A stretch of DNA of 57,976 nucleotides from an uncultured Candidatus Bathyarchaeia archaeon (GTDB lineage: Archaea > Thermoproteota > Bathyarchaeia > TCS64): NCBI GenBank assembly GCA_964537625.1, contig CAZIAF010000001.1:1-57976 (forward strand), in the 5' to 3' direction. Shown here one piece after another: positions 5,317 to 57,976 of the stretch. Under the pieces are notes generated by a model that worked only from the letters and a program-made list of their open reading frames with translations, was not told the DNA's origin and made no database searches. Position 1 is the first letter of the stretch. Each line of letters begins with the position of its first letter. Made by a program: the position numbers and the translations under genes.

Positions 5317-7275
5317 ATGTTGGCAAAAAAGAAGCCAGTTGAGATAAAGGATCTTTTCAAGCTTCGTTTGGTTTCTGACCCTCAGATATCCCCGGATGGG
5401 AATAGGATCGCTTTCGTCCATACCGTGATTGACTACGATAAGGACGAATATCTTAACGATATCTGGATGGCAGATGCGAAGACAGGGGCATTGGGTCAGT
5501 TTACGTCAGGTCGAGGTAAGGACAAAAATCCCTGCTGGTCCCCCGACGGGAAACAGCTGCTCTTCACCTCAATATCCCCAGCTAATGATGATGAGGAAAA
5601 GAAAAAACCCCAGCTCTACATAATACAGGTAGGTGGGGGAGAAGCGAGGAAACTCACCGACCTCAAATTCGGCGTCGAGATGCCGAAGTGGTCATCAGAC
5701 GGGAAGCAGATACTATTCATTAATCCAACCCAGCCTGTGGAGACGAAGAACGATGTAAAACATATAACTCGTCTCAGCTACAAATTTAACGGGCGAGGCT
5801 TCTATAACGGCGTCTATAAACACGTTTTCACCGTGTCCTTGAAAGGAGGAAAACCGAAGCAGATCACCCACGGCGATTTCGATGTCCACGCAGCCGAATG
5901 GCTGGGAAAGTCGATCATATTCATTGGTAACAACGAGCTGGACGCCGAAAGAGAAGGCTACGAATACATCTACCTCATCGATGCAAAGGATAAACCGAAG
6001 AGGCTGATTGAGGGTACATGGAATATTGAGACTGTAGAGGTTTCCCCAAACAGGAAACAGATCGCTTTCTCAGGCCACGACTATCGGAAGGGCGGCGCTA
6101 CCAAACACGATATCTGGATCATACCTTACGACGGAGGAACTCCTAAGAAGCTTACCGTCGACTTCGAACCCGACTTGGGTGTAAAAATAAGTAGTGATGT
6201 CCGCATCTCCTCCTCCGACCCTACACCTTTCTGGCACAACGATGGTCACATCTATTTCACATCAAACTTCGCCGGTGTCAGTAACCTCAACCGCATCAAG
6301 GAGGATGGTGGGACTGTGGAGCGCCTCCTCGGGGAAATCGACCACAGTGTCGAAGCCTGGAGCATCAATAATGGTGGCGCTATAGCCTACACAACTCTCG
6401 CGGTCACTAAGCCCTCAGACCTCTGGGTGAATAGTGATGGCAATGCCAAGCAACTCACCAACTTTAACAGGAGGTGGCTTGATAGCCTCGACCTACGAAC
6501 CCACGAAAGGATCGAATTCAAGTCCAGTGGGGGTCACACAGTGGAGGGTTGGATTATGAAGCCAAGCGCCTTCAGGATTGGGAAGAAGTACCCGATGGCT
6601 TTGGAGATTCACGGTGGCCCTCGAGGTGTATTCGGTTACGCTCTTATGCACGAGCACCAAGTCCTTGCTGGTCAGGGATGGGGAGTCATGTACATCAACC
6701 CCTGGGGGAGCGGCGGATACACAGAAGATTATCAGGCGGGGCTTCCCGGCCACTACGGTGAACGGGACTATGCTGACATCATGGAGGCATGCGACTACTG
6801 CATAAAGACCTTCAAATGGGTCGATGGGGACCGCCTCGCTTGCCTTGGTGGCAGTTATGGCGGCTTCATGACCAACTGGATTGTCACTCAAACCACCAGA
6901 TTTAAAGCTGCAGTTACGATGCGCAGTATCAGCAACTGGGTAAGCTTCTTCGGAACCTCGGACATAGGGTGGACCTTCGGGAAACGAGAGATTCTTGGAC
7001 TACCTTGGGATCACGAAGAGAAATTCATGGCGAAGAGCCCGATAAGGTATGTGAAGAATGTAAAAACCCCTACACTCGTGATACACAGCGAGGAGGACTT
7101 TAGGTGCCCAATCGAACAGGGAGAGCAGTTCTACACTGCACTCAAATACCTGAACGTGTCGACTGAATTTCTTAGATTCCCGAAGGAGAATCATGAGTTG
7201 AGTCGCAGCGGTAAACCTAAACACAGGGAGATCCGTCTTGAGAACATAGTCCGCTGGTTGAAGACGTACCTCTAG
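5317..7275 (+). CDS. S9-family serine peptidase (acylaminoacyl-peptidase / prolyl-oligopeptidase-like)
   Basis: N-terminal beta-propeller-type repeats (SPDG..., WSPDGKQLLF, WSSDGKQILF). The C-terminal hydrolase domain has GGSYGGFMTNW (Ser nucleophile), HSEEDFRCP and ENHELS. I moved the start to the ATG at 5317 (MLAKKKPVEIK) because the track's 5110 start overlaps rpl21e. Confidence 0.9.
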   Translation: MLAKKKPVEIKDLFKLRLVSDPQISPDGNRIAFVHTVIDYDKDEYLNDIWMADAKTGALGQFTSGRGKDKNPCWSPDGKQLLFTSISPANDDEEKKKPQLYIIQVGGGEARKLTDLKFGVEMPKWSSDGKQILFINPTQPVETKNDVKHITRLSYKFNGRGFYNGVYKHVFTVSLKGGKPKQITHGDFDVHAAEWLGKSIIFIGNNELDAEREGYEYIYLIDAKDKPKRLIEGTWNIETVEVSPNRKQIAFSGHDYRKGGATKHDIWIIPYDGGTPKKLTVDFEPDLGVKISSDVRISSSDPTPFWHNDGHIYFTSNFAGVSNLNRIKEDGGTVERLLGEIDHSVEAWSINNGGAIAYTTLAVTKPSDLWVNSDGNAKQLTNFNRRWLDSLDLRTHERIEFKSSGGHTVEGWIMKPSAFRIGKKYPMALEIHGGPRGVFGYALMHEHQVLAGQGWGVMYINPWGSGGYTEDYQAGLPGHYGERDYADIMEACDYCIKTFKWVDGDRLACLGGSYGGFMTNWIVTQTTRFKAAVTMRSISNWVSFFGTSDIGWTFGKREILGLPWDHEEKFMAKSPIRYVKNVKTPTLVIHSEEDFRCPIEQGEQFYTALKYLNVSTEFLRFPKENHELSRSGKPKHREIRLENIVRWLKTYL

Positions 7276-7289
7276 TAGTTTTCCTTTCT

Positions 7290-8618
7290 TTACTTCTGGA
7301 ACATCTTGAAGGGCATGCTTCGGAGCCTGCGGTTTCCCTTTAACTGCTTGAACATCTTCTTCATGTTGTCGTGTTGCTTGACTAGTTCTTTTACCTCAGC
7401 CTCGGTAGTGCCTGAGCCTCGGGCGATGCGTTTCATTCGACTCGAGTTGATTACCTTGGGGTCCTCCTTCTCCTCAACTGTCATGCTCCTTATGATAACC
7501 TTCCACCGATCGAGACGCTCCTCAGCCTTTTCCATGTCGGCCTCAGGGAGCTTGTAGCTCATTCCCGGTATCATGCCAAGAACTTTCTGGATGGGACCCA
7601 TTTTGCTCATGGCTTCAAACTGGTCATACATGTCCTGGAGGGTGAACTTACCGCTCATCATGGCTCGGACATCCTTCTCTGAGGGCTGGATCTCGGCCTC
7701 CTTGACCTTAGCTACTAGACCATCTATGTCTCCCATCCCAAGGAGACGGCCGACGAAACGACTCGGAGCGAAAGGCTCGATATCTTCGATCTTCTCACCA
7801 GTGCCGATAAACTTGATTGGTGCTCCGGTGGCTGCTACACTGCTGAGGGCACCTCCACCACGGGCTGTGCCGTCGAGCTTGCTAACTATGATGCTTCCAA
7901 CTTGAGTCGCATCCTTGAAGGCTTGAGCCTGTGAGGAGGCTTGCTGTCCTATAGTACCATCGAGGACTAGAACGATCTCCTGGGGCTTTACGGCAACAGC
8001 GATCTGCTGCATCTCTTCAATGAGACTCCTCTCTTCCTTGTGACGCCCGGAAGTATCAAGGATGACGACTTCGTAGCTCTTGAACCACTCCACACCATGT
8101 TTGGCTACTGAGACTGGGTCCTTGCTCTCCTCTTCACCGTAGAAGTCGATCTTGATCTGCTCCGCCAGCTGCTTCAACTGGTTATAAGCCCCAGGACGGA
8201 ATGTGTCGCAGGTGATTAGCCCAGTTTTGAATCCCCGTTTCTGGTAATATCTAGCGAGTTTCCCCGCTGTAGTTGTTTTACCCGATCCCTGTATACCGAT
8301 GAGCATTACTACATTCTGCTTCCCCGGCTGGATCTTGATATCTTCCTGCTTCTCGCCGACGAAATGAGTCAACTCGTCGTAAACGACCTTAACAATGTGC
8401 TCACGGCGGCTAATGCCTGGGGGTAATTCCTGGCCCAAAGCACGCTTCTCTATGTTCTGGCTGAGCTGCATGACAAGGCCGACATTGACGTCGGCTTGGA
8501 GCAGAGCTCTTTGGAAGTCACGGATCAACTCCTTGACAAGTGCCTCGTCGACAACGGGTGCCCTGATTACCTTACGTAAAGCGTCATAGAGGCTTGACCC
8601 CAGCTTCTCCAGAACCAT
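7290..8618 (-). CDS. srp54: Signal recognition particle protein SRP54
   Basis: G-domain motifs GIQGSGKTTTAGKLA, DTSGRH and SKLDGTARGG, followed by a Met-rich M domain. The start is placed at MVLEKLGSSLYDAL (ATG 8618) rather than at the 20-codon upstream extension. Confidence 0.95.
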   Translation of the reverse strand: MVLEKLGSSLYDALRKVIRAPVVDEALVKELIRDFQRALLQADVNVGLVMQLSQNIEKRALGQELPPGISRREHIVKVVYDELTHFVGEKQEDIKIQPGKQNVVMLIGIQGSGKTTTAGKLARYYQKRGFKTGLITCDTFRPGAYNQLKQLAEQIKIDFYGEEESKDPVSVAKHGVEWFKSYEVVILDTSGRHKEERSLIEEMQQIAVAVKPQEIVLVLDGTIGQQASSQAQAFKDATQVGSIIVSKLDGTARGGGALSSVAATGAPIKFIGTGEKIEDIEPFAPSRFVGRLLGMGDIDGLVAKVKEAEIQPSEKDVRAMMSGKFTLQDMYDQFEAMSKMGPIQKVLGMIPGMSYKLPEADMEKAEERLDRWKVIIRSMTVEEKEDPKVINSSRMKRIARGSGTTEAEVKELVKQHDNMKKMFKQLKGNRRLRSMPFKMFQK

Positions 8619-9282
8619 CGGTTTTCGTATATATTCAGTTGGCGAATGGATTAAATGTTGCCGTGGCTTGGTTACCAAAAATTAGCATACAGCAGTAAAT
8701 GTAACGAGTGTAACCGCATTTTAGTGGTTGGTTTGGATATAATTCCTTGTCAGAAATGTTCTCTTCTTTATATTGAAGGATTTTTAGGCGGGTTTATACC
8801 ATAGCAATGATATCTTTAAGTACCATTCTACGATTTTAATCGTGAAAGGTACTACGGCTAGACTGAATGTAAAGGAGTATGAGAAGAAAATAAGAAAAAT
8901 GTTTAAACAGAATATCCGGAAAAGAAAGCAACTAAAGACCTCGGTGAAATCTGTGGTCGCAGAAAGACTTGAGCAAGCTAAAAACTCGGAAGCAGGCTTG
9001 AACGTTTTACCTAACAACCCTGACTAGAGACGATTAAAAACTAATCTTTGCATATTTTAACCTCACCACTTTGTGAAATAAACTGGCTCACTAAAGCCTG
9101 ATGTTTTTTAGCTCCTCTTTTTCGAATTTATACAAGTCTCATTCAGAGAAAAGAATTGGTTTCCCTCTAAGAGACCAATCAGTACTAGCGAAAACCTCTT
9201 ATCATTCTCGATATTGTATAAGGACTTCAGTGTTTTCACTATAGAGGTACATTTTATGGTCAACGACAAGATAGGTGATACC

Positions 9283-12003: not shown

Positions 12004-13677
12004 ATGTCCAGGCTCTACCCCGAAGGAGTTCCTCGTAGCTTAGAGTACCCAGTGATGCCGCTATATTCCTTTCTTGAGAACACCTCTCGGAAGTTTCCTT
12101 CAAGAATCGGCGTCATATACCTGGGTAACCACGTGAGCTACAGTGAGCTCTGGGATAAGACGCTCCGTTTCGCAGGAGCATTACAGCGGCTAGGTATCGA
12201 TAAAGGAGATCGCGTTGGTCTTCTCCTACCAAATACACCGCAGTTTATTGTAGCTTTCAACGCAGTATTGGTATCGGGCGGGATCGTAGTACCCATCAAT
12301 CCCTTGAACCCAGTCGAGGAGATCGGTAGAGAACTAAAGGAGACCGAGTGCAAAATCCTCATCGTCCTGGACAGATTGCTGGATAAGCTACCAAATGATT
12401 ATTCGGGAAAAGTCGTCGTCGCTAATGCCACAGAGTACGCCCTCTTTCACATTAAACTGCTTAATAACTTCATATATCAGGCCAAAATAATAAAAGATGC
12501 ATTAAACTTTGAGACATTGAAGCGAGGGGAAGCTATTGAAGCTCCGATGCAAGTCGACGCCCGCGAAGACTTGGCCACAATTCTTTACACCTCCGGTACT
12601 ACAGGGAAGCCGAAAGGAGTAATGCTCACACACTTCAACCTCACCGCTAACGCACTCCAGAGTTACTTTTGGCTCCGTGGTTGGGGGTACAGCCCAAAGC
12701 CTCAACCGGAGGGTTGGCCGCTCATCCTATGTGCGGTCCCCTTCTTCCATAGCTACGGGCTAAACATCATGAACGAGGCTGTAAGCTTCGGCTGCACTCT
12801 AGTACTCATCCCGCAGCCTAAACCTGAGGCAATTCTTAATGCAATACATAGACATAGGGTCACCCATGCTCCGTTGATCCCTCGTTTTGTCGGAGAGATG
12901 ATCGATCATCCTCAACTTAGCAGTTATAATTTGACGAGTATCACGACGGTTTCCAGTGGCGGGGGGTACATTCGCCCCGAACACATGAAGAAGTTCGAAG
13001 TCGTCACCGGGGCAATGTTTTATCAAGGCTATGGTCTAACTGAGGCCGGACCAACGACCCACGCAACTCCTATAGTGGGCGCTCCGAACCACCTCAGCGC
13101 TGGTCTTGCCTATCCCGACACGGAAGTCAAGGTAGTTGATCTTCAACTTGGCGAGGTAGAGCTAAAGCCAGGACGCGAAGGAGAGCTAGTTGTCCGTGGT
13201 CCGCAGGTTATGAAGGGCTACTGGAAGGCACCGGAGGAGACGAGAAAGGTCCTCAAGGACGGTTGGCTCTATACAGGTGATATAGTGCGGGTCGATGAGG
13301 GGGGATGGCTCTACTTTATCGGCCGTAAAAGGGATAGGATCGTGGCTGGTGGCCACACCGTATGGCCAGCCGAGGTGGAGGAGACTCTCATTAGCCACCC
13401 TGATGTTGAGCAGGCAGTCGCGGTCGGCACTCCCGATCCACTGAGGTGTAACACTGACATCCAAGCATTCGTTGTGCTGAAGAAAGGTGTCGATCCCACA
13501 GATATCGAACTTCGGCTAATACAATACTGCCGCCTCCAGCTACAGATCTACCAGGTACCGACCAGGATCGATGTCGTATCTTCGCTACCCATGACCCAGA
13601 TGGGGAAGATTGACCGCCTCGCCGTCGAAGCCGAGATCGAGCGTCGCGTCCAACAATCATTAAAAAACTACACTTGA
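12004..13677 (+). CDS. AMP-forming acyl-CoA synthetase (fatty-acid/organic-acid CoA ligase)
   Basis: YTSGTTGKPKGVMLTH (AMP-binding P-loop), GYGLTE and YTGD motifs. ATG at 12004; the track's 12001 is a TTG one codon upstream. Confidence 0.9.
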   Translation: MSRLYPEGVPRSLEYPVMPLYSFLENTSRKFPSRIGVIYLGNHVSYSELWDKTLRFAGALQRLGIDKGDRVGLLLPNTPQFIVAFNAVLVSGGIVVPINPLNPVEEIGRELKETECKILIVLDRLLDKLPNDYSGKVVVANATEYALFHIKLLNNFIYQAKIIKDALNFETLKRGEAIEAPMQVDAREDLATILYTSGTTGKPKGVMLTHFNLTANALQSYFWLRGWGYSPKPQPEGWPLILCAVPFFHSYGLNIMNEAVSFGCTLVLIPQPKPEAILNAIHRHRVTHAPLIPRFVGEMIDHPQLSSYNLTSITTVSSGGGYIRPEHMKKFEVVTGAMFYQGYGLTEAGPTTHATPIVGAPNHLSAGLAYPDTEVKVVDLQLGEVELKPGREGELVVRGPQVMKGYWKAPEETRKVLKDGWLYTGDIVRVDEGGWLYFIGRKRDRIVAGGHTVWPAEVEETLISHPDVEQAVAVGTPDPLRCNTDIQAFVVLKKGVDPTDIELRLIQYCRLQLQIYQVPTRIDVVSSLPMTQMGKIDRLAVEAEIERRVQQSLKNYT

Positions 13678-13723
13678 GAGTATAAGTAGTAGGAATCATA
13701 AGTTTGGTAGTAGATTATCTCTT

Positions 13724-14188
13724 ATGCTCCCACCGAAAACGGTCCTCAAGGATAGGATAGCCAGAATTATAGCCGCTACAAGGTTTCCTTTCGTCGACCA
13801 GACAACATGGGATGAAGATAGGCAAACCCTGGTCAATACGCGAAAGGAAAAGCCTTATGGGGTGGAGACTTCGATGGCCATACTCTACCCGAGCATTGTT
13901 GTTCTAAACCCAGATGGCGCTATCAGGGAGATAGGAGAAGTTGAGATGGGGATTAGCAAAAGACTCCTCCAGAAGTGGAGGTTGCTCTCAGAGGCGACCG
14001 GCATGGGTGAGAGGTACAAGAAGCTCTTCCTCTATGTCCCAAAAGGTGAAGGCAGCAAGGCACAGAGACTACTCGAAAAATGTGGTATAGAGTACGCCGG
14101 TCTTCGGGAGTGGAACATCGAAGATGGGATCCTAGCGACCCGTCCGGTGAAGACACCGGATATGGAGTACGACCACAGGGTCAGTTAG
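13724..14188 (+). CDS. Hypothetical protein, possible PD-(D/E)xK-like fold (weak)
   Basis: 154-aa ORF with normal coding look. The NPDGAIREIGEVEMGISK string within an alternating beta/alpha pattern is the only hint of function. Its 3' end overlaps the convergent ATPase gene by 8 nt. Confidence 0.5.
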   Translation: MLPPKTVLKDRIARIIAATRFPFVDQTTWDEDRQTLVNTRKEKPYGVETSMAILYPSIVVLNPDGAIREIGEVEMGISKRLLQKWRLLSEATGMGERYKKLFLYVPKGEGSKAQRLLEKCGIEYAGLREWNIEDGILATRPVKTPDMEYDHRVS

Positions 14189-15893
14189 GCGGCAGTAATA
14201 GGCTAGCCAAATATTCTTCCGCTTGCTTAATGACCGTCTCGTCGTACATACTCCCTAACTCCCTCTTAATGTACTCACCCAACATCCAATGAATGATCCC
14301 CGTCTCTTTATCATCGAATACTAATCTTGTTTCCTCGAGCAAACGTATTTCGGTGTAGAAGTCATCGGTCATTCTGCTTCCTCCTCCTCGCAAGAAGCTG
14401 AAGAGTTCACCACGCTTCACTGCTTTTTTCTCATGTACCACCATAGCAGTATGCATAGAGCTCTGTTTGAGGTTCCTGATTCGGGTTCCCACTTCCCAGA
14501 TAAATCTCTCTTTAATTATTTCTTTAAATCTGCCGGAGATATCGATGCTAGTGAATAAGGTTGGCTTGTCATATTGTATAATCTGGTGCATCCGATGGTC
14601 AATAAGCCGATTAAGATCATCAACTGTAAAGTCAGAGTAAATCTGTGGAGGTTGTGTCCTCGTAATATGATGATCCACCGTTTCCATCTCTTTGATTAGC
14701 TGTTCCACCTTAGCGGTGCTATTCATGTTTTCCTTACGAAGATTTTCAACCTCTATTTTAAGTTCCGCGATCTCGTTTTCTTTAATCGTAAATTTATAGT
14801 TGAGTTCCTCAATTTTTTTCATATTTTGTTCAAAATCTTCGCTTGGGGAGAGACTTGCTGTCTCCTTTTGTTTCCTAGAACTTTGGCTATTTTCTCCACT
14901 AGAAGCTGACATGTACTTGAATGCTTCAGTAACAGTGATCTCCCCCAAAGCGACACCCCGACCGATCTCTGGGGGGACATTCGCTGGAAGAACGTAGACT
15001 TTCTTAATGTTGTCTCCTAGTATTGCTATAAAGTGACCGATTTGTAGGCTCCTGATCTCCTCTGCGTCTATCTTTGTTTTCCCGATCTGCTCTCGAACTC
15101 TCTCTACTTCATGGCCTTCTCTCTGTCGGCCAAGGATCCAGTTGTTACATTGACGGAGGGGCATCTTGTCTATACCCGCGATGTCTTGAGAGTCAATGAA
15201 GAGAAAGTTGCCAATTGCAGCGCCTTTCCTGATGAAAGTCTCTGCAAAGAGCTTGACCGGCGTATTCCTCCCCTGAGGGATATGTTCCCATGCTTCGGGG
15301 ACAATTAGTATTGTGTCATGCAAGTTGTTAATGACATATTCCATAGTACTCTGGATGACTAGGCTTTGGAGCTCGACGCTCATTTCCGTGAGGTCCATTA
15401 CGTTTATACTGTCGATGAGACTCAGGGTTTTTGCAAATCGGAACCTCTCTATCTGGGGTACTACGATCTTGAGGTACTCCTCAAGGGCAGTGTAGACATT
15501 CTCAGATAGTTGTTTTTTTGTCTCAGCTCGGAGGGATTGGACATTTTCCAGCACTTCACCAAGGGTTCTAGTTCCTTTAGTCGCTTTCATTATCCAAGGT
15601 CGTTCAAACTTCATTTTTTCTCTTAACACTGCTTCAAGCAGGCTGGAAACGTACTGCCAATCAGCGCGCTCGTTGAAAAAAGGAGGTATCTCTCTAAAAT
15701 TTTTAAACCCGGATTCACCGCGCTTCGTCTTAAAGGCAATAGCGCGTCTGTTCGCTCTGCTGATTATCGCCTCTAGGGTTGTGGTCTTCCCGGAAAGTTG
15801 CGTCATTCCTGTGATGACCGTGTGATGGAGATTCATGTAAACTTCGATACCGGTTCCTACCTCAAAGCCCAGGAGAATTTTGACATCGCCCAT
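14181..15893 (-). CDS. HerA/FtsK-superfamily (DUF87-like) P-loop ATPase with a coiled coil and a C-terminal wHTH-like domain
   Basis: Motifs HHTVITGMTQLSGKTTT (P-loop), TILIVPEAWEHIP (Walker B / DEAH position) and RKGAAIGNFLFIDSQ...LRQCNNWILGR. These are followed by a heptad-rich segment, KKIEELNYKFTIKENEIAELKIEVENLRKEN. The gene is clearly AT-richer than its neighbours. Confidence 0.7.
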   Translation of the reverse strand: MGDVKILLGFEVGTGIEVYMNLHHTVITGMTQLSGKTTTLEAIISRANRRAIAFKTKRGESGFKNFREIPPFFNERADWQYVSSLLEAVLREKMKFERPWIMKATKGTRTLGEVLENVQSLRAETKKQLSENVYTALEEYLKIVVPQIERFRFAKTLSLIDSINVMDLTEMSVELQSLVIQSTMEYVINNLHDTILIVPEAWEHIPQGRNTPVKLFAETFIRKGAAIGNFLFIDSQDIAGIDKMPLRQCNNWILGRQREGHEVERVREQIGKTKIDAEEIRSLQIGHFIAILGDNIKKVYVLPANVPPEIGRGVALGEITVTEAFKYMSASSGENSQSSRKQKETASLSPSEDFEQNMKKIEELNYKFTIKENEIAELKIEVENLRKENMNSTAKVEQLIKEMETVDHHITRTQPPQIYSDFTVDDLNRLIDHRMHQIIQYDKPTLFTSIDISGRFKEIIKERFIWEVGTRIRNLKQSSMHTAMVVHEKKAVKRGELFSFLRGGGSRMTDDFYTEIRLLEETRLVFDDKETGIIHWMLGEYIKRELGSMYDETVIKQAEEYLASLLLPPN

Positions 15894-16015
15894 AACTCCA
15901 ACCCTCGAAGAGATCAGTATAACCTATCACGTTACGGTTTAAATCAGTAAGGTGTTATTTTATAAGTGAAAATTTAAAAAAAATAGATGTGTAGCTGGAG
16001 GAGGCTTGTTATGTG

Positions 16016-16309
16016 TTACTCACGGAACCTTATCCTCGCCTTTATAGGGGTTTCCATAACTTTGAGTACAAAGTATCCTAACGGCTCTATTTTCGCTAGC
16101 CGAGTATCTCTTATAGAACCATAGCTTATTAGGTTAAGTTCCCTGAGAATTCTGGAGTTCAGTTTAAGTGTCGAAAGTGGGATACCGGTCTCATTTGATA
16201 GGTTTTTCAGTAGACTTGTCAGGGAATATCTATTTGATAAGATTCTTGTAAGAATTAGGAGTTGTTTGTCGTTAAGGGTCCTTAAAAGTAGTCTGCGGAG
16301 GTCTTCCAC
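16016..16309 (-). CDS. Small winged-helix/HTH-like protein (putative regulator)
   Basis: 97 aa. LTSLLKNLSNETGIPLSTLKLNSRILRELNLISY reads as helix-turn-helix plus wing. It is AT-rich like the ATPase gene downstream on the same strand. Confidence 0.5.
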   Translation of the reverse strand: MEDLRRLLLRTLNDKQLLILTRILSNRYSLTSLLKNLSNETGIPLSTLKLNSRILRELNLISYGSIRDTRLAKIEPLGYFVLKVMETPIKARIRFRE

Positions 16310-16545
16310 TCCGCTGTTTGATATTGGAGGTTGAACACACTCTGCACCTGCAGAGACTCAACTGCTTAGTTTAAAAACATGTTGTGTACGGGAATAGCTT
16401 TCTATTGAAATTATACGTGAAATTGGGGGCGAATGTAGCCTCATATAGTGAGATTATTAAGTGGGCTAAATGTTAATGCCCGCCGCGCGCTCTGGACTAG
16501 GTCGCTGGTTTTATACACCCTTATGACTAATACTCCCTGAGTAAT

Positions 16546-17964
16546 ATGATTAAAGAAAGCGCTTTCAACTTTATCGACGGAAAGAGGAAAGAACTCATAG
16601 GCATCAGCGATAAGGCATGGGAGTACGCTGAGGTTGGTCTCCTCGAGACGAAAACTAGCAAGCTCTTCGCTGACTGGATAGAAAAACAAGGCTTTAAACT
16701 AGAGAGGGGAGTCGCAGACATGCCTACTGCATTTGTTGCCACCTGGAATAACGGTCCGGGTCCTACCATCGGATTGATGGGCGAACTCGATGCCCTCCAG
16801 GGCCTCAGTCAGAAGGCGGTTCCCTATAAAGAGCCGATTAAGGAAGGTGCACCCGGTCACGGTTGTGGTCATAACATTCATGGTACAACAGCTCTCGCTG
16901 CTGCAGTCGCCATGAAGACTGCGATGGAGGAGAATAAGATAGGTGGTACTGTTAAGATGTTTGGTTGCCCAGCCGAGGAGACTCTAGTTGGCAAGGTTTG
17001 GCTCGTTCGCCATAATCTCTTCAATGGGGTTGATGCAGCGCTTAGTCACCACCCTGGAAACAGCAACACAGCGGGTACTGGCAGTAGTAATGCCATGAAC
17101 AGTTTCAAAGTCCACTTCTATGGCCGCACAGCCCATTCAGCAGGGGATCCCGAGAATGGTATTAGCGCTTTAGATGCAGTTGAGCTGATGAGCAATGGTG
17201 TCAACTTCATGCGTGAGCACATAATCGAAAAGGCACGAGTCCACTATGTAACCGAATACGGTGGAGGGCAACCAAACGTTGTCCCCGCCTATGCCAGAGT
17301 CTGGTACTATGTCCGCGCCCCGGAGAGAGAGCAGGTAGAACCCATCTACAACTGGGTCCTACAGATCGCGGACGGGGCAGACAAAATGGCGAGAACAACA
17401 CATAAGATCGAATTCCTCACAGGCTGCTACAACGATCTCTCAAACAAGATACTCGCTGACATAATCGTCGCCAACATGCGTGAGGTTGGAGCCCCCACAC
17501 ACGACGAAGCTGAGATAAAGTTCGCTAAGGAACTTAGTAAGAGCATCGACCCAACTCAGAAGAAGGAGGGACTCCGCAAATCGGAGCGCCCAGGTTGGGA
17601 TAAGCTGGTGGACGAGCTATTCGACGACCGCATCCTCGATGACTACCGAAATGGAAAGGTCGGAGCAGGTAGCACGGATGTAAGCGACGTCAGCTGGGTG
17701 ACACCGACAAACGAGTTCAGCACAACTACCTGTATACTTGGCACTCCCGGCCACAGCTGGCAATTCACAGCACAGGGAGGCATGAGCATCGGCCACAAGA
17801 GCCTGATCTTTGCCACCAAGACGATGGCGGGAACAGGACTAGACTTAATCACTAAGCCAAAACTTTTGAAGGAAGCGAAGATAGAGTTTAAGAAACAGCT
17901 TGCAGGGAGGAAGTATAAACCACCCATCCCCCTTGACCTTAAGCCACCGCTCAAACAATTTTAA
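16546..17964 (+). CDS. M20-family amidohydrolase, AbgB-like (aminobenzoyl-glutamate hydrolase subunit B family)
   Basis: 472 aa. ISDKAWEYAEVGLLE...MPTAFVATW...GLMGELDAL...GHGCGHN is typical of the AbgB/M20 clade. Confidence 0.8.
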   Translation: MIKESAFNFIDGKRKELIGISDKAWEYAEVGLLETKTSKLFADWIEKQGFKLERGVADMPTAFVATWNNGPGPTIGLMGELDALQGLSQKAVPYKEPIKEGAPGHGCGHNIHGTTALAAAVAMKTAMEENKIGGTVKMFGCPAEETLVGKVWLVRHNLFNGVDAALSHHPGNSNTAGTGSSNAMNSFKVHFYGRTAHSAGDPENGISALDAVELMSNGVNFMREHIIEKARVHYVTEYGGGQPNVVPAYARVWYYVRAPEREQVEPIYNWVLQIADGADKMARTTHKIEFLTGCYNDLSNKILADIIVANMREVGAPTHDEAEIKFAKELSKSIDPTQKKEGLRKSERPGWDKLVDELFDDRILDDYRNGKVGAGSTDVSDVSWVTPTNEFSTTTCILGTPGHSWQFTAQGGMSIGHKSLIFATKTMAGTGLDLITKPKLLKEAKIEFKKQLAGRKYKPPIPLDLKPPLKQF

Positions 17965-19553
17965 ATCCCATATCCATAATGATCTTTAACTATGAACTGC
18001 TTCTTATAGAGGTCTCTAACCTTCTCAAACGTGTCCACGTCTTCGAGTCCCTTATCATATCTTATGTGAATTATTCTGGCAAATCGGAGGGCGAAGCCAC
18101 TTTGGTACCTAGTACTCCTCTGTACCTCATTGAAAGCAACCTCAACAACAATCTCAGGGTGAACTGACAAGGTGTACTCGGTTTCGTTGATTTTGCTCCT
18201 ATGCAGACGCTGAGTCATCCAACGGAACTCCTCGTCTGTGAGTCCCTTGAATGTCTTGCCCACAACCTTCCAGTCCTCACCATCCTTCACGGCGAGGTGG
18301 TAGTTACTGAGCCACCCTTTCCGCCTGCCAGACCCCCAATCAACTGCGACAATTACCAGATCAAGGGTTTCTGAGGGCTTGAGTTTTAGCCAGTCTTTCC
18401 CCCTAGCCCCAGGAGCGTACGCGCTGTCGAGTCTCTTAGCCATAAGCCCCTCGTGGCCAGCTCTCATAGCTGCCTTATAGAACGCATCCGCCTCCTCCGA
18501 GCTGTCAGTGACAATCCGCTCCGTTAGAAGGACTTTAGGCGCTATCTTACTGAGAATTGCCCACCGCGTTTCGTTAGTTGCATCTATGAGGAGAGTTCCA
18601 TCAAGGTAGAGGACGTCGAAGAGATTGAGTTTGAGTGGGATGAGCTTCGCTGTCTGCTCGACCTCATTGACGCGGGTTAAGCGTCGCATAAGGTCCTGGA
18701 AGGGTAACGGCTTTCCCTCGGGACCAACTGCTATAATTTCCCCCTCTACGATCAGCCCAACTTGTGGTAGGAATCTCCGGACAAGAGTGACTATATCAGG
18801 GACACTCTCTGTGACGTCGCTTAAACGTCTGCTATAGATCCTAATCTCATCACCAATACGGTGTATCTGAACACGGGCACCATCGAATTTGTACTCGAAT
18901 GCTGTCTTACCGCCCTGCTCCTTAAGTGCTTCTTCAACGTTATTCACCGTCCCCGCTAGCATCGGCTTCAAAGGCACGAAAAGTTCAGGCTTGATCCCCT
19001 CTAATCCCTTCTTACCCTGGGTGAGAGCAATTAGGGCGACTTCTCCAAGGTTCCCCGTGAGCATGAGGGCTCTCCGTACTAACGGAAGAGGTGTCTTGGA
19101 TGCATCCGCTAATGCTTCGAGCATCACACCCTCGTTGACACCTATTCTCATATCGCCGAAGATGATTCTTACGAGGATCTCGACTTCCTCCGTACTCGCG
19201 TTACTAATCAGTCCAACGAGAAGCCGCTCCTTCAGCTTACGGGAGCGCATACCTGATGCAATAGCGATCTCCCCTAGGATGCTGTGGACTCGGCGGATTG
19301 TGAGCTGCTCTCTGAGGAGCGTCGTCTGCTTTTCTTTCTCCAGAACCCGCTTCATTGTTCTCCAACCTACCTCGAGGGTCCGGGGGTCGAACTCGGGGAA
19401 TATCTGACCAACGACCAATAGGACAGCAGACGCTACCTCATCGGGTTGAAGCTGCCGAAGGAACTCGGCGATAAGATGAGTCTTCTCAGTTCTCTTCATC
19501 GTCACCTCTAGCGCCTTGCACAGTTTCGCGAGATTGATGAAAGATGTAACCAT
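17961..19553 (-). CDS. lig: ATP-dependent DNA ligase
   Basis: 530 aa. EYKFDGARVQIHR (KxDG adenylation motif), EGLMAK and the OB-fold tail. Confidence 0.95.
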   Translation of the reverse strand: MVTSFINLAKLCKALEVTMKRTEKTHLIAEFLRQLQPDEVASAVLLVVGQIFPEFDPRTLEVGWRTMKRVLEKEKQTTLLREQLTIRRVHSILGEIAIASGMRSRKLKERLLVGLISNASTEEVEILVRIIFGDMRIGVNEGVMLEALADASKTPLPLVRRALMLTGNLGEVALIALTQGKKGLEGIKPELFVPLKPMLAGTVNNVEEALKEQGGKTAFEYKFDGARVQIHRIGDEIRIYSRRLSDVTESVPDIVTLVRRFLPQVGLIVEGEIIAVGPEGKPLPFQDLMRRLTRVNEVEQTAKLIPLKLNLFDVLYLDGTLLIDATNETRWAILSKIAPKVLLTERIVTDSSEEADAFYKAAMRAGHEGLMAKRLDSAYAPGARGKDWLKLKPSETLDLVIVAVDWGSGRRKGWLSNYHLAVKDGEDWKVVGKTFKGLTDEEFRWMTQRLHRSKINETEYTLSVHPEIVVEVAFNEVQRSTRYQSGFALRFARIIHIRYDKGLEDVDTFEKVRDLYKKQFIVKDHYGYGI

Positions 19554-35889: not shown

Positions 35890-36056
35890 CTCAACGCGTT
35901 TCAAAACGAGGCACCTACTTCATCTTAAGGGGATCTAGAATTAGTAATTTTTCAAGTTACGACGGGAGTATCGATATGTGTAGCATATACGCCAGCCGCT
36001 TCCCTAATACAGCAGTTGAAATTAGAGGTCCTACAGTAGTAAACGTTTGTAAGTGA

Positions 36057-36506
36057 TTATGGAATGAGGCCAAAATCCTCCTTTATTGTGTTTAGAACGA
36101 GGTGGGTCTTCGTCCGCTCTACATGGGGTACAGTTAATAACTTTTTTGTAAAGTCGCTAAGTTCTTTTCGGGTTCGGAACTTCCCGATGATCATGAGGTC
36201 GCTGTCTCCAGTGATATTATAGACCCCAGTCGCTTGGCTCATCTTAGCGATGACCTCCCCGACTTCAATCATCCTCCCCTCAGATACTATGATCTCCGTA
36301 ATAGCAGTCAGTTCAAATCCGAGTTTTTCATAGTCGAGTAGAGCCCCATAACGACGTATGACTCCAGTGTCCTCCAGCTCTTTGAGTCTGGATGCAACTG
36401 TTCCGGATGAGACACCAATTTTCCGTGCGACTTCACGAATTGACTGACGTGAATCCCTTAGATATTCCTCAAGGACCTTCGATGAGATATCGTCTGACAG
36501 ATCGAT
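36057..36506 (-). CDS. Lrp/AsnC-family transcriptional regulator with no canonical start codon (the track shows only its C-terminal 71 aa)
   Basis: My translation of the open frame above the track's ATG (36272) gives IDLSDDISSKVLEEYLRDSRQSIREVARKIGVSSGTVASRLKELEDTGVIRRYGALLDYEKLGFELTAITEIIVSEGR-MIEVGEV... This is a full HTH_AsnC plus RAM architecture. The frame is bounded upstream by TGA at 36509-36507. Confidence 0.7.
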   Translation of the reverse strand: MDLSDDISSKVLEEYLRDSRQSIREVARKIGVSSGTVASRLKELEDTGVIRRYGALLDYEKLGFELTAITEIIVSEGRMIEVGEVIAKMSQATGVYNITGDSDLMIIGKFRTRKELSDFTKKLLTVPHVERTKTHLVLNTIKEDFGLIP

Positions 36507-36834
36507 TCACCTTGAGCGAATGATGATTTCTGACGGTTAAAGTTGGCGTTTGGCGAGTAAGAAATTATACCTTAAGACATCTAGAAGAGAAATTAGAAAA
36601 CAATTATCGTGATTATTATAAACGCTAGCACCTTTGCGCGCGCACAATCGGTAAAACCCTGTCGGTGAGAGCAAAGTCAATGTTCTTTGGTTATGCGTTA
36701 ATGAGTGTGAGGCGGTACATTTTGTTGTATTGGCGACGTGTGTTACGACTAGGTTTTTTGATAAATTTGGCTCTAGAGGTAGCCCCAATTAAACTCTTCG
36801 AAGAATTTTGTTTGTTGGAAAAAGGAAAAAAGGC

Positions 36835-56620: not shown

Positions 56621-57092
56621 TACGTCATGCCCGAACGCGTAGCATGAGGGACTCGAAATGGTCCCTCTTGGTCATCATTTTCTCGGTACATTCTTCGTTC
56701 ATGGTGCGTACTCGACCTCCCTCATCTTCTTCTTCTCCCCGTTCATGTCCGTCAGAGTGTTGTTGGTGTTGATGACAACGCCGTGCGCATGCTTATTTCA
56801 AAGTGGGATATCAGCAACGGCAACAACCATTGTAATTACATCAATTCCAACAAACTGGCAACGGGGGAGGAGCGGAAGACCAGGAAGCATTCGCCTCCGG
56901 ATTTTCGTACCACTCGTTTTGAAACAGAGGGCGATACAGAATTTATTTTATTATTTGACTACCATTCGACTTTATGGATTAAGAAAGATTTTGGAAATAC
57001 GTGTCTTTCAGGCTGCAAGTCCCCTTCTAATCGATAAAATGATTCTTTATCAAATAGTAAGCTAATGTATGCGTTGTGCGCGCCTATATGAA

Positions 57093-57245: not shown

Positions 57246-57976
57246 CTATGCCTGAGCATCCAACGGATTAAAGTAAGACCTCCCGTGCACCAGCACGCTA
57301 AAGCACACCTCCACAAGCTTCCTAGCAGCAGCCACCAGGGCAGGCCTCCTGCCCCTCCTCTCCGCGACGCCGTGGTAGAACCGTGTCACCGGAGTATCAT
57401 ACCTGATGTGAACCATCGCCGCCTCCACCATAGCCCACCTGAGCCAACGAGATCCTTCGCGAGTGATCCCACCGTGACGCTCCACACCGCCGCTGCTCCT
57501 GGTGCTGGGAACCAGGCCAGCGTAGCTGGCGAGGTGGTCACCGCTGCCGAAGCGGCGCACATCACCGATCTCCGACTTCACCAGCAGCGCCACGTAGTAG
57601 CCGACACCGGGTATCGTCATGAGCAGCTGGACCTCCGCGTCCTTCCCGGCGCTCCGCTTCAAGTCCCCTGAGACGAGCTTCACCTCCTCCTTCAGCGGCT
57701 CGATGAGGCGAAGATAGCAGTCAACGGGCTCCAGCCTAAGGCTCCGCAGCCACTCGACACCCTTGGCCGTAAAGAGGCCATGGCCTGTGGGTGGCTTCAC
57801 TCCCTCTGCGGCGAGGACGTCTCGGATCTTCACCTTCAGCTTCGTCACCTGCCTGACCATGAAGGCCCTACGCCTGACCTTCTCCCGGATCTGGGCGATG
57901 TCCCTCGGTGGTATGTAACTCGTGGGCAAGCTGTCCAGCCTCAGCAGCTCCGCTAAGGCTCTTGAGTCGACTCTGT
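57246..57976 (-). CDS. IS110-family transposase/recombinase, C-terminal part (5' end off-window)
   Basis: LMTIPGVGYYVALLVKSEIGDVRRFGSGDHLASYAGLVPSTRSSGG (Transposase_20 block). The frame stays open upstream of the track's Met to the window edge (...RVDSRALAELLRLDSLPTSYIPP). The gene is markedly GC-rich. Confidence 0.9.
   Translation of the reverse strand, partial: RVDSRALAELLRLDSLPTSYIPPRDIAQIREKVRRRAFMVRQVTKLKVKIRDVLAAEGVKPPTGHGLFTAKGVEWLRSLRLEPVDCYLRLIEPLKEEVKLVSGDLKRSAGKDAEVQLLMTIPGVGYYVALLVKSEIGDVRRFGSGDHLASYAGLVPSTRSSGGVERHGGITREGSRWLRWAMVEAAMVHIRYDTPVTRFYHGVAERRGRRPALVAAARKLVEVCFSVLVHGRSYFNPLDAQA

Follow-up and report, generated by a model that had tools for sequence, protein, structure and literature searches.

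A predicted HerA-clade DNA motor of probable viral origin at a fixed chromosomal locus of Bathyarchaeia

The DNA analysed here, which we refer to as the window, is a stretch of 57,976 nucleotides (nt) from an uncultured Candidatus Bathyarchaeia archaeon (assembly GCA_964537625.1, contig CAZIAF010000001.1, positions 1 to 57,976). We studied a block of three open reading frames (ORFs) that lies within it between an acyl-CoA synthetase gene and an M20 peptidase gene. The core of the block is a gene for an ATPase of 570 amino acids (aa), which is preceded on the same strand by the gene of a small winged helix-turn-helix (wHTH) protein, p97, and is convergent with a gene for a 154-aa protein, p154. 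The original prediction, made from the sequence alone, described the three genes as an AT-rich accessory island and as the parts of a possible defence system. Our analyses indicated that the block is a resident gene, p154, plus a two-gene p97-ATPase unit, and no single system, and that the ATPase gene of this unit was probably derived from a virus. The three ORFs, their coordinates and strands, and the 8-nt overlap of the convergent p154 and ATPase genes were exact on an ORF check, and every motif that had been quoted was found. The genes of the locus are as follows:

14181-15893, minus strand: HerA-clade ATPase, 570 aa, the core of the finding (ORF call, Foldseek)
16016-16309, minus strand: p97, a 97-aa small wHTH protein, Tar/TK0271-like (NCBIfam TK0271_fam)
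13724-14188, plus strand: p154, a 154-aa ORF, a Bathyarchaeia-specific gene with a weak YaeQ-like fold (ORF call)
12004-13677: AMP-binding acyl-CoA synthetase, flank of the three-ORF block (Pfam)
from 16546: M20 peptidase, the other flank of the block (Pfam)
17961-19553: ATP-dependent DNA ligase, beyond the M20 gene

Searches with the ATPase sequence placed it outside described families. It has no Pfam model (FtsK_SpoIIIE was reached only at E=0.23 and DUF87 was unmatched), it scored 17.7 bits against NCBIfam HerA_Thermprot, whose cutoff is 800, and searches of Protein Data Bank (PDB) chains gave weak, motif-consistent matches (SsoHerA, E=2e-4; the DUF87 protein 8yho, E=5e-4). An AlphaFold2 monomer model of the ATPase was obtained from 72 homologs, with a mean predicted local distance difference test score (pLDDT) of 83, and all of its top 50 PDB matches by Foldseek were HerA proteins (E=1.7e-14 to 7e-9). 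The best match was S. solfataricus HerA (4d2i, E=1.7e-14), and the matches included the T. kodakarensis HerA-NurA (9x1l), D. radiodurans HerA and the Sir2-HerA and DUF4297-HerA defence complexes, with bacterial HerAs at E=1e-11 to 1e-9. Viral FtsK-like and A32-like ATPases in BFVD were much weaker matches (E=2e-7 or worse). Together with hidden Markov model alignments to HerA and DUF87 structures, these data supported the HerA/FtsK assignment made in the original prediction, including its view of the ATPase as a non-canonical, undescribed family. By its predicted fold the ATPase is a member of the FtsK-HerA superfamily and of the HerA clade within it.

The domain plan of HerA, including its four-helix insertion, has been described (PMC11291478). 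In our model the RecA-like core of the ATPase begins near the N-terminus, with three short strands before a P-loop that starts at aa 29, and because the core starts almost at the N-terminus the HAS barrel is absent, as had been noted from the sequence. The linker that follows the core is disordered (pLDDT <50 at aa 331-350) and leads into a single long helix, in agreement with the Ser/Gln linker and coiled coil originally proposed; coiled-coil noise was the sole Pfam signal in this region. The ATPase has no transmembrane or hydrophobic segment and is predicted to be soluble. Its parts are listed below:

14904-15893, minus strand: RecA-like domain, aa 1-330, with the four-helix insertion at aa 79-150 and without a HAS barrel (AlphaFold2 secondary structure)
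15780-15809, minus strand: Walker A, GMTQLSGKTT, aa 29-38 (alignments A1 and A4, alignment to 8yho)
15285-15314, minus strand: atypical Walker B, TILIVPEAWE, aa 194-203, aligned to HerA ...VIEEAH / FIFEEAH
15183-15230, minus strand: aa 222-237, RKGAAIGNFLFIDSQD, with R222/K223 aligned to the (E)GRK(F)G of HerA and D234 and Q236 on the sensor strand
14670-14903, minus strand: Ser/Gln linker, aa 331-350, and long helix, aa 352-408, a predicted coiled coil (AlphaFold2)
14184-14540, minus strand: C-terminal domain, aa 452-570, winged-helix-like, the presumed specificity module (AlphaFold2)

The alignment to HerA bore out two departures from the canonical motifs that had been noticed at the outset. 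Met30 stands at the usual place of the first Walker A glycine, with the glycine displaced by one position to G29, and Pro199 replaces the first acidic residue of the HerA Walker B "EE"/"DE" (...VIEEAH in SsoHerA). Residues G29, S34, G35, K36 and T37 were invariant in alignment A1. Across 86 diverse family representatives, which are only 31-56% identical, G29, G35, K36, P199, E200, D234 and Q236 were all invariant and R222 and G224 were at least 90% conserved, a level that K223 reached in A1. Because P199 and E200 are invariant over these 86 representatives, the "PEAWE" Walker B is, as read from the alignment, a defining feature of the family rather than a lesion. R222/K223 and Q236, the latter at the end of the sensor strand, align to the GRK...SQ motifs of HerA. 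In DUF4297-HerA an Arg/Lys pair acts in trans as an arginine finger (PMC11291478), and the R222/K223 pair of the ATPase, which we equate with GRK by motif position, is a putative trans arginine finger of the same kind.

Inteins are found in orthologs of the ATPase, one of them inserted in the P-loop, after aa 37-39 (L022/P0039). Inteins typically target functionally critical sites, and ATPases of the PilT/GspE type hydrolyse ATP with an atypical hhhhGE Walker B. Because all the other catalytic elements are conserved and the P-loop of orthologs has received inteins, the evidence favours the prediction that the ATPase is an active enzyme. The intein of ortholog P0039 (963 aa; L022:3445-4620) has LAGLIDADG and intein-splicing Pfam domains. 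A second insert, of ~1.1 kb, follows aa 75 of the ATPase ortholog in a hot-spring metagenome-assembled genome (MAG; L035:6220-7317), and P0047 is a third intein-bearing homolog.

The C-terminal domain was modelled at a pLDDT of 85-94 with the order H1-S1-H2-H3-S2-S3 plus flanking helices, which is a winged-helix topology, and in the model it reads like a winged helix. A PDB profile search and Pfam gave no match to this domain, so the original proposal of a ~120-aa C-terminal winged helix is backed by the model topology, with the PDB and Pfam searches neither supporting nor contradicting it. The domain is present throughout a clade of chromosomal ATPases described below; outside that clade we found it in 1 of 146 family representatives and in two homologs in a mobile-element context (L013 and L006). 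The consensus of the C-termini in the family ends in a wing-like LxxLxxxGFL...Y, and one family member matches MarR_2. We infer that the C-terminal module has been exchanged between family members, as expected for a replicon-specific recognition module. The linker and long helix are the fastest-evolving part of the gene, with a rate of non-synonymous substitution (dN) of 0.57-0.69 vs 0.09 for the motor. A conserved motor, a fast-evolving tether and an exchangeable, DNA-binding-like module together point, by analogy, to our preferred mechanism, a translocase in which the C-terminus would carry the specificity of loading.

In one of the two mobile-element homologs (L013:4120-5349) a 409-aa ParB_N protein overlaps the start of the ATPase homolog with the window-type C-terminal domain and is translationally coupled to it, with an integrase-like gene and a DUF5131 gene nearby. 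The ParB_N protein and the ATPase may have been a functional pair in the viral ancestors. A relationship between p97 and the C-terminal domain of the ATPase was also considered and was rejected (hhalign probability 0.7%).

An exhaustive HMMER search with aa 1-330 recovered 788 clusters at 50% identity, of which 469 had E<=1e-30, and did not reach the canonical HerAs. The chromosomal type is one of the clusters listed; identities of 43-57% prevail among the remaining ones listed, and lengths run from 369 to 886 aa. A word-indexed search found more than 1625 homologs of the ATPase, and those with a source name were all from Bathyarchaeota. Members of the family that are 39-62% identical are carried by 12 IMG/VR contigs. 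Besides a portal and TerL (phrog_2 at E=1e-42; Terminase_6N/6C), the proteins encoded there include a prohead protease, a cement protein and a major capsid protein of the HK97 type, so that the contigs are read as predicted head-tailed viruses or proviruses of Bathyarchaeia. The gene order in seven loci was ATPase, one to three small genes, a ~170-aa gene, TerL or portal, and then capsid, and the ~170-aa gene before TerL may be that of the small terminase subunit. Recurrent neighbours of the viral and mobile ATPases were ParB_N proteins, DUF5131, methylases, an SNF2 helicase and tyrosine integrases.

Because the same viral contigs carry a canonical TerL and portal, the ATPase is predicted to be a second DNA motor of head-tailed viruses and not their packaging enzyme. 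The idea of a packaging ATPase, which had come from a weak PHROG terminase match and from the position of the gene by the morphogenesis module, was rejected on the same ground. A replicative helicase as the general role was unsupported; MCM-WH-like or DnaB/KaiC-like proteins are encoded as well by some of the viruses. No p97 homolog was detectable ahead of the viral ATPases, at a position where small HTH or zinc-ribbon genes are often found; derivation of p97 from these small genes was considered and rejected (hhalign probabilities <5%). A "HerA" has been mentioned in passing in an archaeal tailed provirus (PMC11705971), and a published paper on Bathyarchaeia viruses does not describe the ATPase.

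In a neighbour-joining tree of 187 motor domains, the 11 chromosomal sequences that had been sampled formed one clade without intruder that was nested among viral and mobile-element sequences. The sister group of the chromosomal clade includes an IMG/VR sequence (L037/P0070) and P0079, which sits on a VirSorter contig full of ORFans. This topology would be explained by a single ancient capture from a virus, followed by vertical inheritance in a clade of Bathyarchaeia.

The chromosomal locus was found to be fixed. The order FEN1/ligase/M20/p97/ATPase/(p154)/AMP-binding/DHDPS was constant for proteins that are 57-98% identical, with ribosomal-protein and SRP54 genes further out, and the same order was present in at least 17 species-representative genomes, all of them Bathyarchaeia. 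All 11 related metagenome loci likewise had the ATPase. Among the chromosomal orthologs, identity in the motor domain is 73-86% vs 63-78% in the ligase and 59-73% in the synthetase, and against distant orthologs the dN of the motor, 0.09-0.10, was the lowest of the neighbourhood. Relative to the closest relative (L049), the rate of synonymous substitution (dS) was 0.08-0.12 for all the neighbourhood genes, and dN/dS was 0.069 for the motor and 0.047 for the C-terminal domain vs ~0.13 for the flanks.

The G+C contents of the ATPase (44.2%, z=-1.8) and p97 (39.8%, z=-3.0, the lowest of all) are indeed low for the 55 ORFs of the window, whose mean is 50.4%, so that part of the original remark on AT-richness held. 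The rest was overstated, as the synthetase is at 51.3% (z=+0.3) and not ~63%, p154 is typical of the window (51.2%, z=+0.2), and two further 1-kb stretches of the window are as AT-rich as the block in a sliding profile. In 16 orthologous loci, from hosts of ~32% to 67% G+C, the G+C at third codon positions (GC3) of the ATPase and p97 tracked the host over ~0.15-0.96. Because the GC3 of both genes follows the composition of each host, the AT dip seen in the window reads as mild and particular to this lineage rather than as a sign of recent import. Repeat searches across 13300-16900 found only short imperfect direct or inverted matches at chance level and no att-like repeats, there is no tRNA or Rfam match in the whole window, and no integrase is present in the locus. 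The accessory island that had been proposed is thus not supported, given the constant flanks, a dS equal to that of the flanks, the host-like GC3 of the orthologs and the absence of the att sites that were to be sought at its ends. The alternative mentioned alongside it, a virus remnant, was half right, in that the family is otherwise found in head-tailed viruses.

Of the three genes, p97 and the ATPase are constant in the syntenic loci that cover the region, and p154 is missing from four of them. Variable spots in the neighbourhood lie beside the p97-ATPase unit and none lies inside it; in some relatives a PIN/MazE toxin-antitoxin pair (L001:4678-5311) and a 202-aa ORF (6859-7467) are inserted among the ligase, M20 and p97 genes. 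In MAG PPR_0092 a chromosomal-type ATPase, with a motor that is 83% identical, is located amid PfkB, TPR and GNAT genes and has no p97 (L021:4250-5956). Another MAG (MFD03899.bin.2.91; L033 and L034) has two chromosomal-type copies with apparent frameshifts in both and in the flanking genes too, which we suspect to be assembly indels or mixed strains rather than pseudogenes.

The p97 protein, initially described as a small wHTH protein upstream on the same strand, matched NCBIfam TK0271_fam over positions 2-85 of 89 (E=1.6e-21). From this match, at 76.3 bits under a curated cutoff of 130, p97 is provisionally assigned as a Tar/TK0271-like winged-helix transcription factor. Of its 234 homologs few have a source name, and these are all from Bathyarchaeota. 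In every syntenic locus that covers the region p97 lies 100-130 nt upstream of the ATPase; the spacing between M20 and p97 is variable, with extra genes between them in some loci. The following elements were found around p97:

15936-15954, minus strand: promoter-like element CACCTTACTGATTTAAACC upstream of the ATPase, a putative function (intergenic alignment of 19 loci)
15976-15983, minus strand: T8 run just past the p97 stop codon, a possible archaeal oligo-T terminator (read from the sequence)
16340-16377, minus strand: p97 promoter region, with TATA-like TTTTTAAA at 16370-16377 and the perfect dyad CTCTGC-AGGT-GCAGAG at 16340-16355

The promoter-like element in the window corresponds to a conserved CCTCACTCATTTAAGCC that is found ~45 nt upstream of the ATPase start codon in the orthologs, and the relocated copy in PPR_0092 keeps it in the form AAACCTCACTAATTTAAGC. 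The two genes seem each to have their own promoter, and the T8 run possibly separates two transcription units. In the window the dyad lies between the TATA-like box and the p97 start codon. In 11 orthologous loci the candidate operator is a perfect dyad, GGCAG-N6-CTGCC, which occurs once per locus at ~95 nt from p97 on its upstream side, just 5' of a TATA-like CTTTTAAAC; in L001 it is located at 7504-7519, with the equivalent position in the 10 other loci. Its longer form in the orthologs is GGGCAG-N6-7-CTGCCC. Tar (TK0271) binds TGGACA-N8-TGTCCA, which is placed upstream of the B recognition element (BRE) and TATA box (PMC6737238), and the layout of the ortholog dyad is like that of the Tar sites.

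The start of p97 is uncertain. Some orthologs (L016, L017) have GTC or GTT at the place of its GTG start, gene callers give the orthologs lengths of 97-164 aa, and the 40 nt upstream of the GTG (CACCTCCAATATC...GCGGAG, window 16307-16360) are nearly invariant as DNA in the ortholog alignment. A different true start, or a conserved 5' leader element, may be the alternatives.

The remaining gene of the block, p154, gave no match in Pfam, NCBIfam, PADLOC, PHROGs or PDB. Its AlphaFold2 model (pLDDT 88.6) weakly matched YaeQ in Foldseek (2ot9, E=1.3e-3, probability 0.99, TM score 0.42), and YaeQ is a protein that we take to be a variant of the PD-(D/E)xK fold. In the putative acidic/lysine motif only E69 and K100 are invariant, with D64 and E72/E74 varying. 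The weak PD-(D/E)xK resemblance of the original prediction therefore survives as a weak YaeQ-like fold, without a sequence-model match or a strict motif. The 308 homologs of p154 that we found are, where named, all from Bathyarchaeota. Four syntenic loci (L012, L023, L024 and L027) lack the gene, and homologs at 49-56% identity sit amid unrelated metabolic genes. The adjacency of p154 and the ATPase, counted over 80 metagenome loci, depended on the identity of the p154 homolog to that of the window:

identity of at least 65%: ATPase adjacent in 11 of 11 informative loci
identity of 56-64%: ATPase adjacent in 2 of 10 informative loci
identity below 56%: ATPase adjacent in 0 of 26 informative loci

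These counts indicated that p154 is a separate resident gene of Bathyarchaeia, a neighbour only, that is linked to the ATPase in one sub-lineage. In one further locus (L075:940-2445) the synthetase is followed by a p154 gene (59% identical) with no 3' end of an ATPase within 1 kb downstream. The arrangement may be that of an empty site, on a contig that is too short to show M20.

We propose the following model, in which each step is a prediction from comparison and modelling. One copy of a viral ATPase would have been captured by the ancestor of a Bathyarchaeia clade, from a seat in the DNA-metabolism region of the virus, just upstream of the terminase module and beside ParB-like, methylase, SNF2 and integrase genes. 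Vertical inheritance in a fixed slot would have followed, with purifying selection on the captured gene equal in strength to that on the neighbouring housekeeping genes. The N-terminal RecA-like domain would form a HerA-like ring, bind ATP through GK36T, hydrolyse it by E200, with E203 as a possible helper and R222/K223 as the trans finger, and pump double-stranded DNA through the pore of the ring. The flexible linker and the ~55-residue helix would tether six winged-helix-like C-terminal domains, and these would select where the motor is loaded, at a DNA site or on a partner. Motors that are directed by a C-terminal winged helix reading polar DNA motifs are known in FtsK-gamma/KOPS and in Streptomyces TraB/clt. 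The p97 protein probably controls its own promoter, and possibly the whole unit, via a dyad upstream of the BRE/TATA element.

We hold with moderate confidence that p97 and the ATPase are, respectively, the regulator and the motor of a unit whose ATPase was derived from a virus, captured once and inherited vertically, and that the motor is a DNA-targeted hexameric translocase. Its task in the cell may be a transaction on chromosomal DNA or interference with related viruses. A more specific role can be offered only as a tentative suggestion that we rate well short of probable: an exapted, sequence-directed DNA pump analogous to FtsK or TraB, kept by a whole Bathyarchaeia lineage as a tightly constrained core gene with a regulator of its own and serving in host chromosome maintenance (segregation or dimer resolution) or as a fixed anti-viral motor, with the family also acting as a widespread and unrecognised DNA-handling component of archaeal tailed viruses, distinct from the terminase.

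Several observations weigh against the translocase model or its parts. The ring and the trans finger are both drawn from homology, and the winged-helix nature of the C-terminal domain from AlphaFold2 topology. The invariant proline replaces the Walker B acid that helps to hold Mg2+, so that hydrolysis could be weak or absent. The neighbour-joining tree was calculated from ~340 columns, is rooted at the midpoint only and has no support values; recombination is possible, given that the C-termini of the sister group differ; and the viral status of the contigs is that predicted by IMG/VR and VirSorter. With regard to p97, the ortholog dyad GGCAG-N6-CTGCC is absent at p97 in the window and was lost in this lineage, the ATPase of PPR_0092 is without p97, which makes p97 a regular but perhaps not an obligate partner, and the gene regulated by p97 could be the divergent M20 gene instead.

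The doubt over hydrolysis can be taken further, and the ATPase may be viewed as a pseudo-ATPase, a nucleotide-binding but non-hydrolysing switch or scaffold that the change from Asp to Pro in Walker B has turned into an ATP-dependent DNA clamp or regulator. A family-wide invariant Pro199 where HerA has Glu or Asp, and a Met in place of the first Walker A glycine, would fit such a role. The conservation of E200, R222/K223, Q236 and GKT fits a working catalytic site, however, and both the activity of PilT/GspE-type ATPases with an hhhhGE Walker B and the P-loop inteins of the orthologs speak for hydrolysis, so that we consider a pseudo-ATPase unlikely. We rate as similarly unlikely the possibility that the viral gene was turned against viruses as a fixed system of superinfection exclusion, in which the C-terminal domain would recognise the DNA or proteins of related head-tailed viruses and block their replication or packaging. 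The viral origin of the family, the C-terminal domain shared with the L013 and L006 homologs and the use of HerA motors by bacterial defence systems are compatible with it, without pointing to it specifically. Against it, the slow evolution of the C-terminal domain (dN/dS 0.047) gives no hint of an arms race, the region is neither variable nor rich in defence genes and has no effector gene, and the ATPase occupies a single fixed slot in all the clade genomes examined.

The three-gene defence system of the original prediction, with the ATPase as motor, p154 as a PD-(D/E)xK-like nuclease effector and p97 as regulator on an accessory island, fared worse and is now very improbable. In its favour are the HerA-clade fold of the ATPase, the weak fold matches of p154 to YaeQ and NucC, the presence of p154, ATPase and p97 together in most clade loci, the position of p97 and the ATPase as the most AT-rich genes of the window, and a single PADLOC match. 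This was mad8 (PDLC04140), to aa 23-294 of the ATPase at E=6.5e-10, and p154 and p97 had none. The authors of MADS built their profiles from HHpred/PDB alignments, and because of this derivation the mad8 match reports a general ATPase fold; no other MADS gene is present. The distribution of p154, missing from four syntenic loci and found elsewhere outside one sub-lineage (0/26 and 2/10 adjacent), largely refutes the three-gene reading. In addition, the p154 gene runs convergently with that of the ATPase, its G+C is native and only E69 and K100 of its putative motif are kept, the locus is fixed and has no att repeats, integrase or tRNA, and its evolution is slow and purifying. The HAS domain docks the effector in DUF4297-HerA (PMC11291478), and this docking surface of the defence HerAs is lacking in the ATPase. 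As the original prediction had already stated, the canonical partners NurA, Sir2, DUF4297, Mre11 and Rad50 are absent; Pfam annotation of orthologous loci showed none of them within ~8 kb. A remnant of an old provirus, decaying and without function, which could be imagined from the viral relatives and from the slightly low G+C of the ATPase and p97 in the window genome, is scarcely credible: at least 17 species have the gene intact and at full length, its dN/dS is 0.05-0.07 with the motor being the most conserved protein of the neighbourhood, and the promoter element is kept, even at the relocated copy in PPR_0092.

Outside the block, the window has two gene-poor, AT-rich intergenic stretches of 40-43% G+C (8679-9213 and 35905-36834), which are without tRNA, Rfam match or tandem repeat; a 71-aa ORF is located at 36057-36272 within the second. 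A further compositional outlier is the ORF at 57246-57929 (G+C 62.3%, z=+3.4, GC3 0.78), which adjoins an ORF at 56658-57065 with a G+C of 42.9% (z=-2.2).

The new element in these findings is a branch of the HerA/FtsK superfamily outside Pfam that is marked by an invariant Pro-Glu Walker B, by the lack of a HAS barrel and by interchangeable C-terminal modules. The locus would also be a clean case of domestication, in which a viral gene was captured and fixed in an uncultured class of archaea. If the ATPase is truly a directed translocase, it would bear on the handling of chromosomal or viral DNA in archaea that lack FtsK and would show what use head-tailed archaeal viruses make of a second DNA motor besides the terminase. 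For annotation, a false lead is removed, as the locus is no HerA-based defence island and p154 is no nuclease partner of the ATPase.

Compared with known systems, the ATPase is closest to the archaeal HerA of the HerA-NurA pair, with which it shares the RecA-like core with its four-helix insertion, the GK[ST] P-loop, a catalytic Glu after Walker B and aligned (G)RK(x)G and SQ motifs. Unlike archaeal HerA it lacks the HAS barrel, has PE and not (D/E)E in Walker B and SQD for SQR, and adds the linker, the long helix and the winged-helix-like C-terminus; it also has no NurA, Mre11 or Rad50 nearby, and the home of its family is viral. Sir2-HerA (Nezha) and DUF4297-HerA belong to the same fold clade, and 8yho could be aligned from Walker B to the sensor strand, but the ATPase has no fused or adjacent effector, no HAS domain and no match to these systems in PADLOC, and its locus is fixed. 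MADS differs in that its other seven genes are absent here, with no methylase, kinase or specificity subunit nearby and with neighbours that are metabolic and replication genes. FtsK/SpoIIIE and Streptomyces TraB share the superfamily and the plan of ring motor, flexible linker and C-terminal winged-helix-like domain; in contrast to them the ATPase has no membrane anchor, reaches Pfam FtsK_SpoIIIE only at E=0.23 and has a fold nearer to HerA. The viral packaging ATPases (A32-like, the NTPases of corticovirus and sphaerolipovirus, and STIV) resemble it through distant BFVD matches and viral context, whereas the ATPase is much larger, with extra domains, and its viruses have TerL, a portal and an HK97 capsid.

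The two neighbours of the ATPase also have recognisable counterparts. YaeQ is matched weakly by the fold of p154 over its whole length, with no Pfam or PDB sequence match and an acidic motif that is not strict. Tar (TK0271), the aromatic amino-acid activator of T. kodakarensis, is matched by p97 over 84 of 89 positions, and the ortholog dyad likewise lies upstream of a TATA-like box; p97 differs from Tar in scoring under the family cutoff, in lying outside an aro operon and in having another dyad sequence, one that has been lost in the window.

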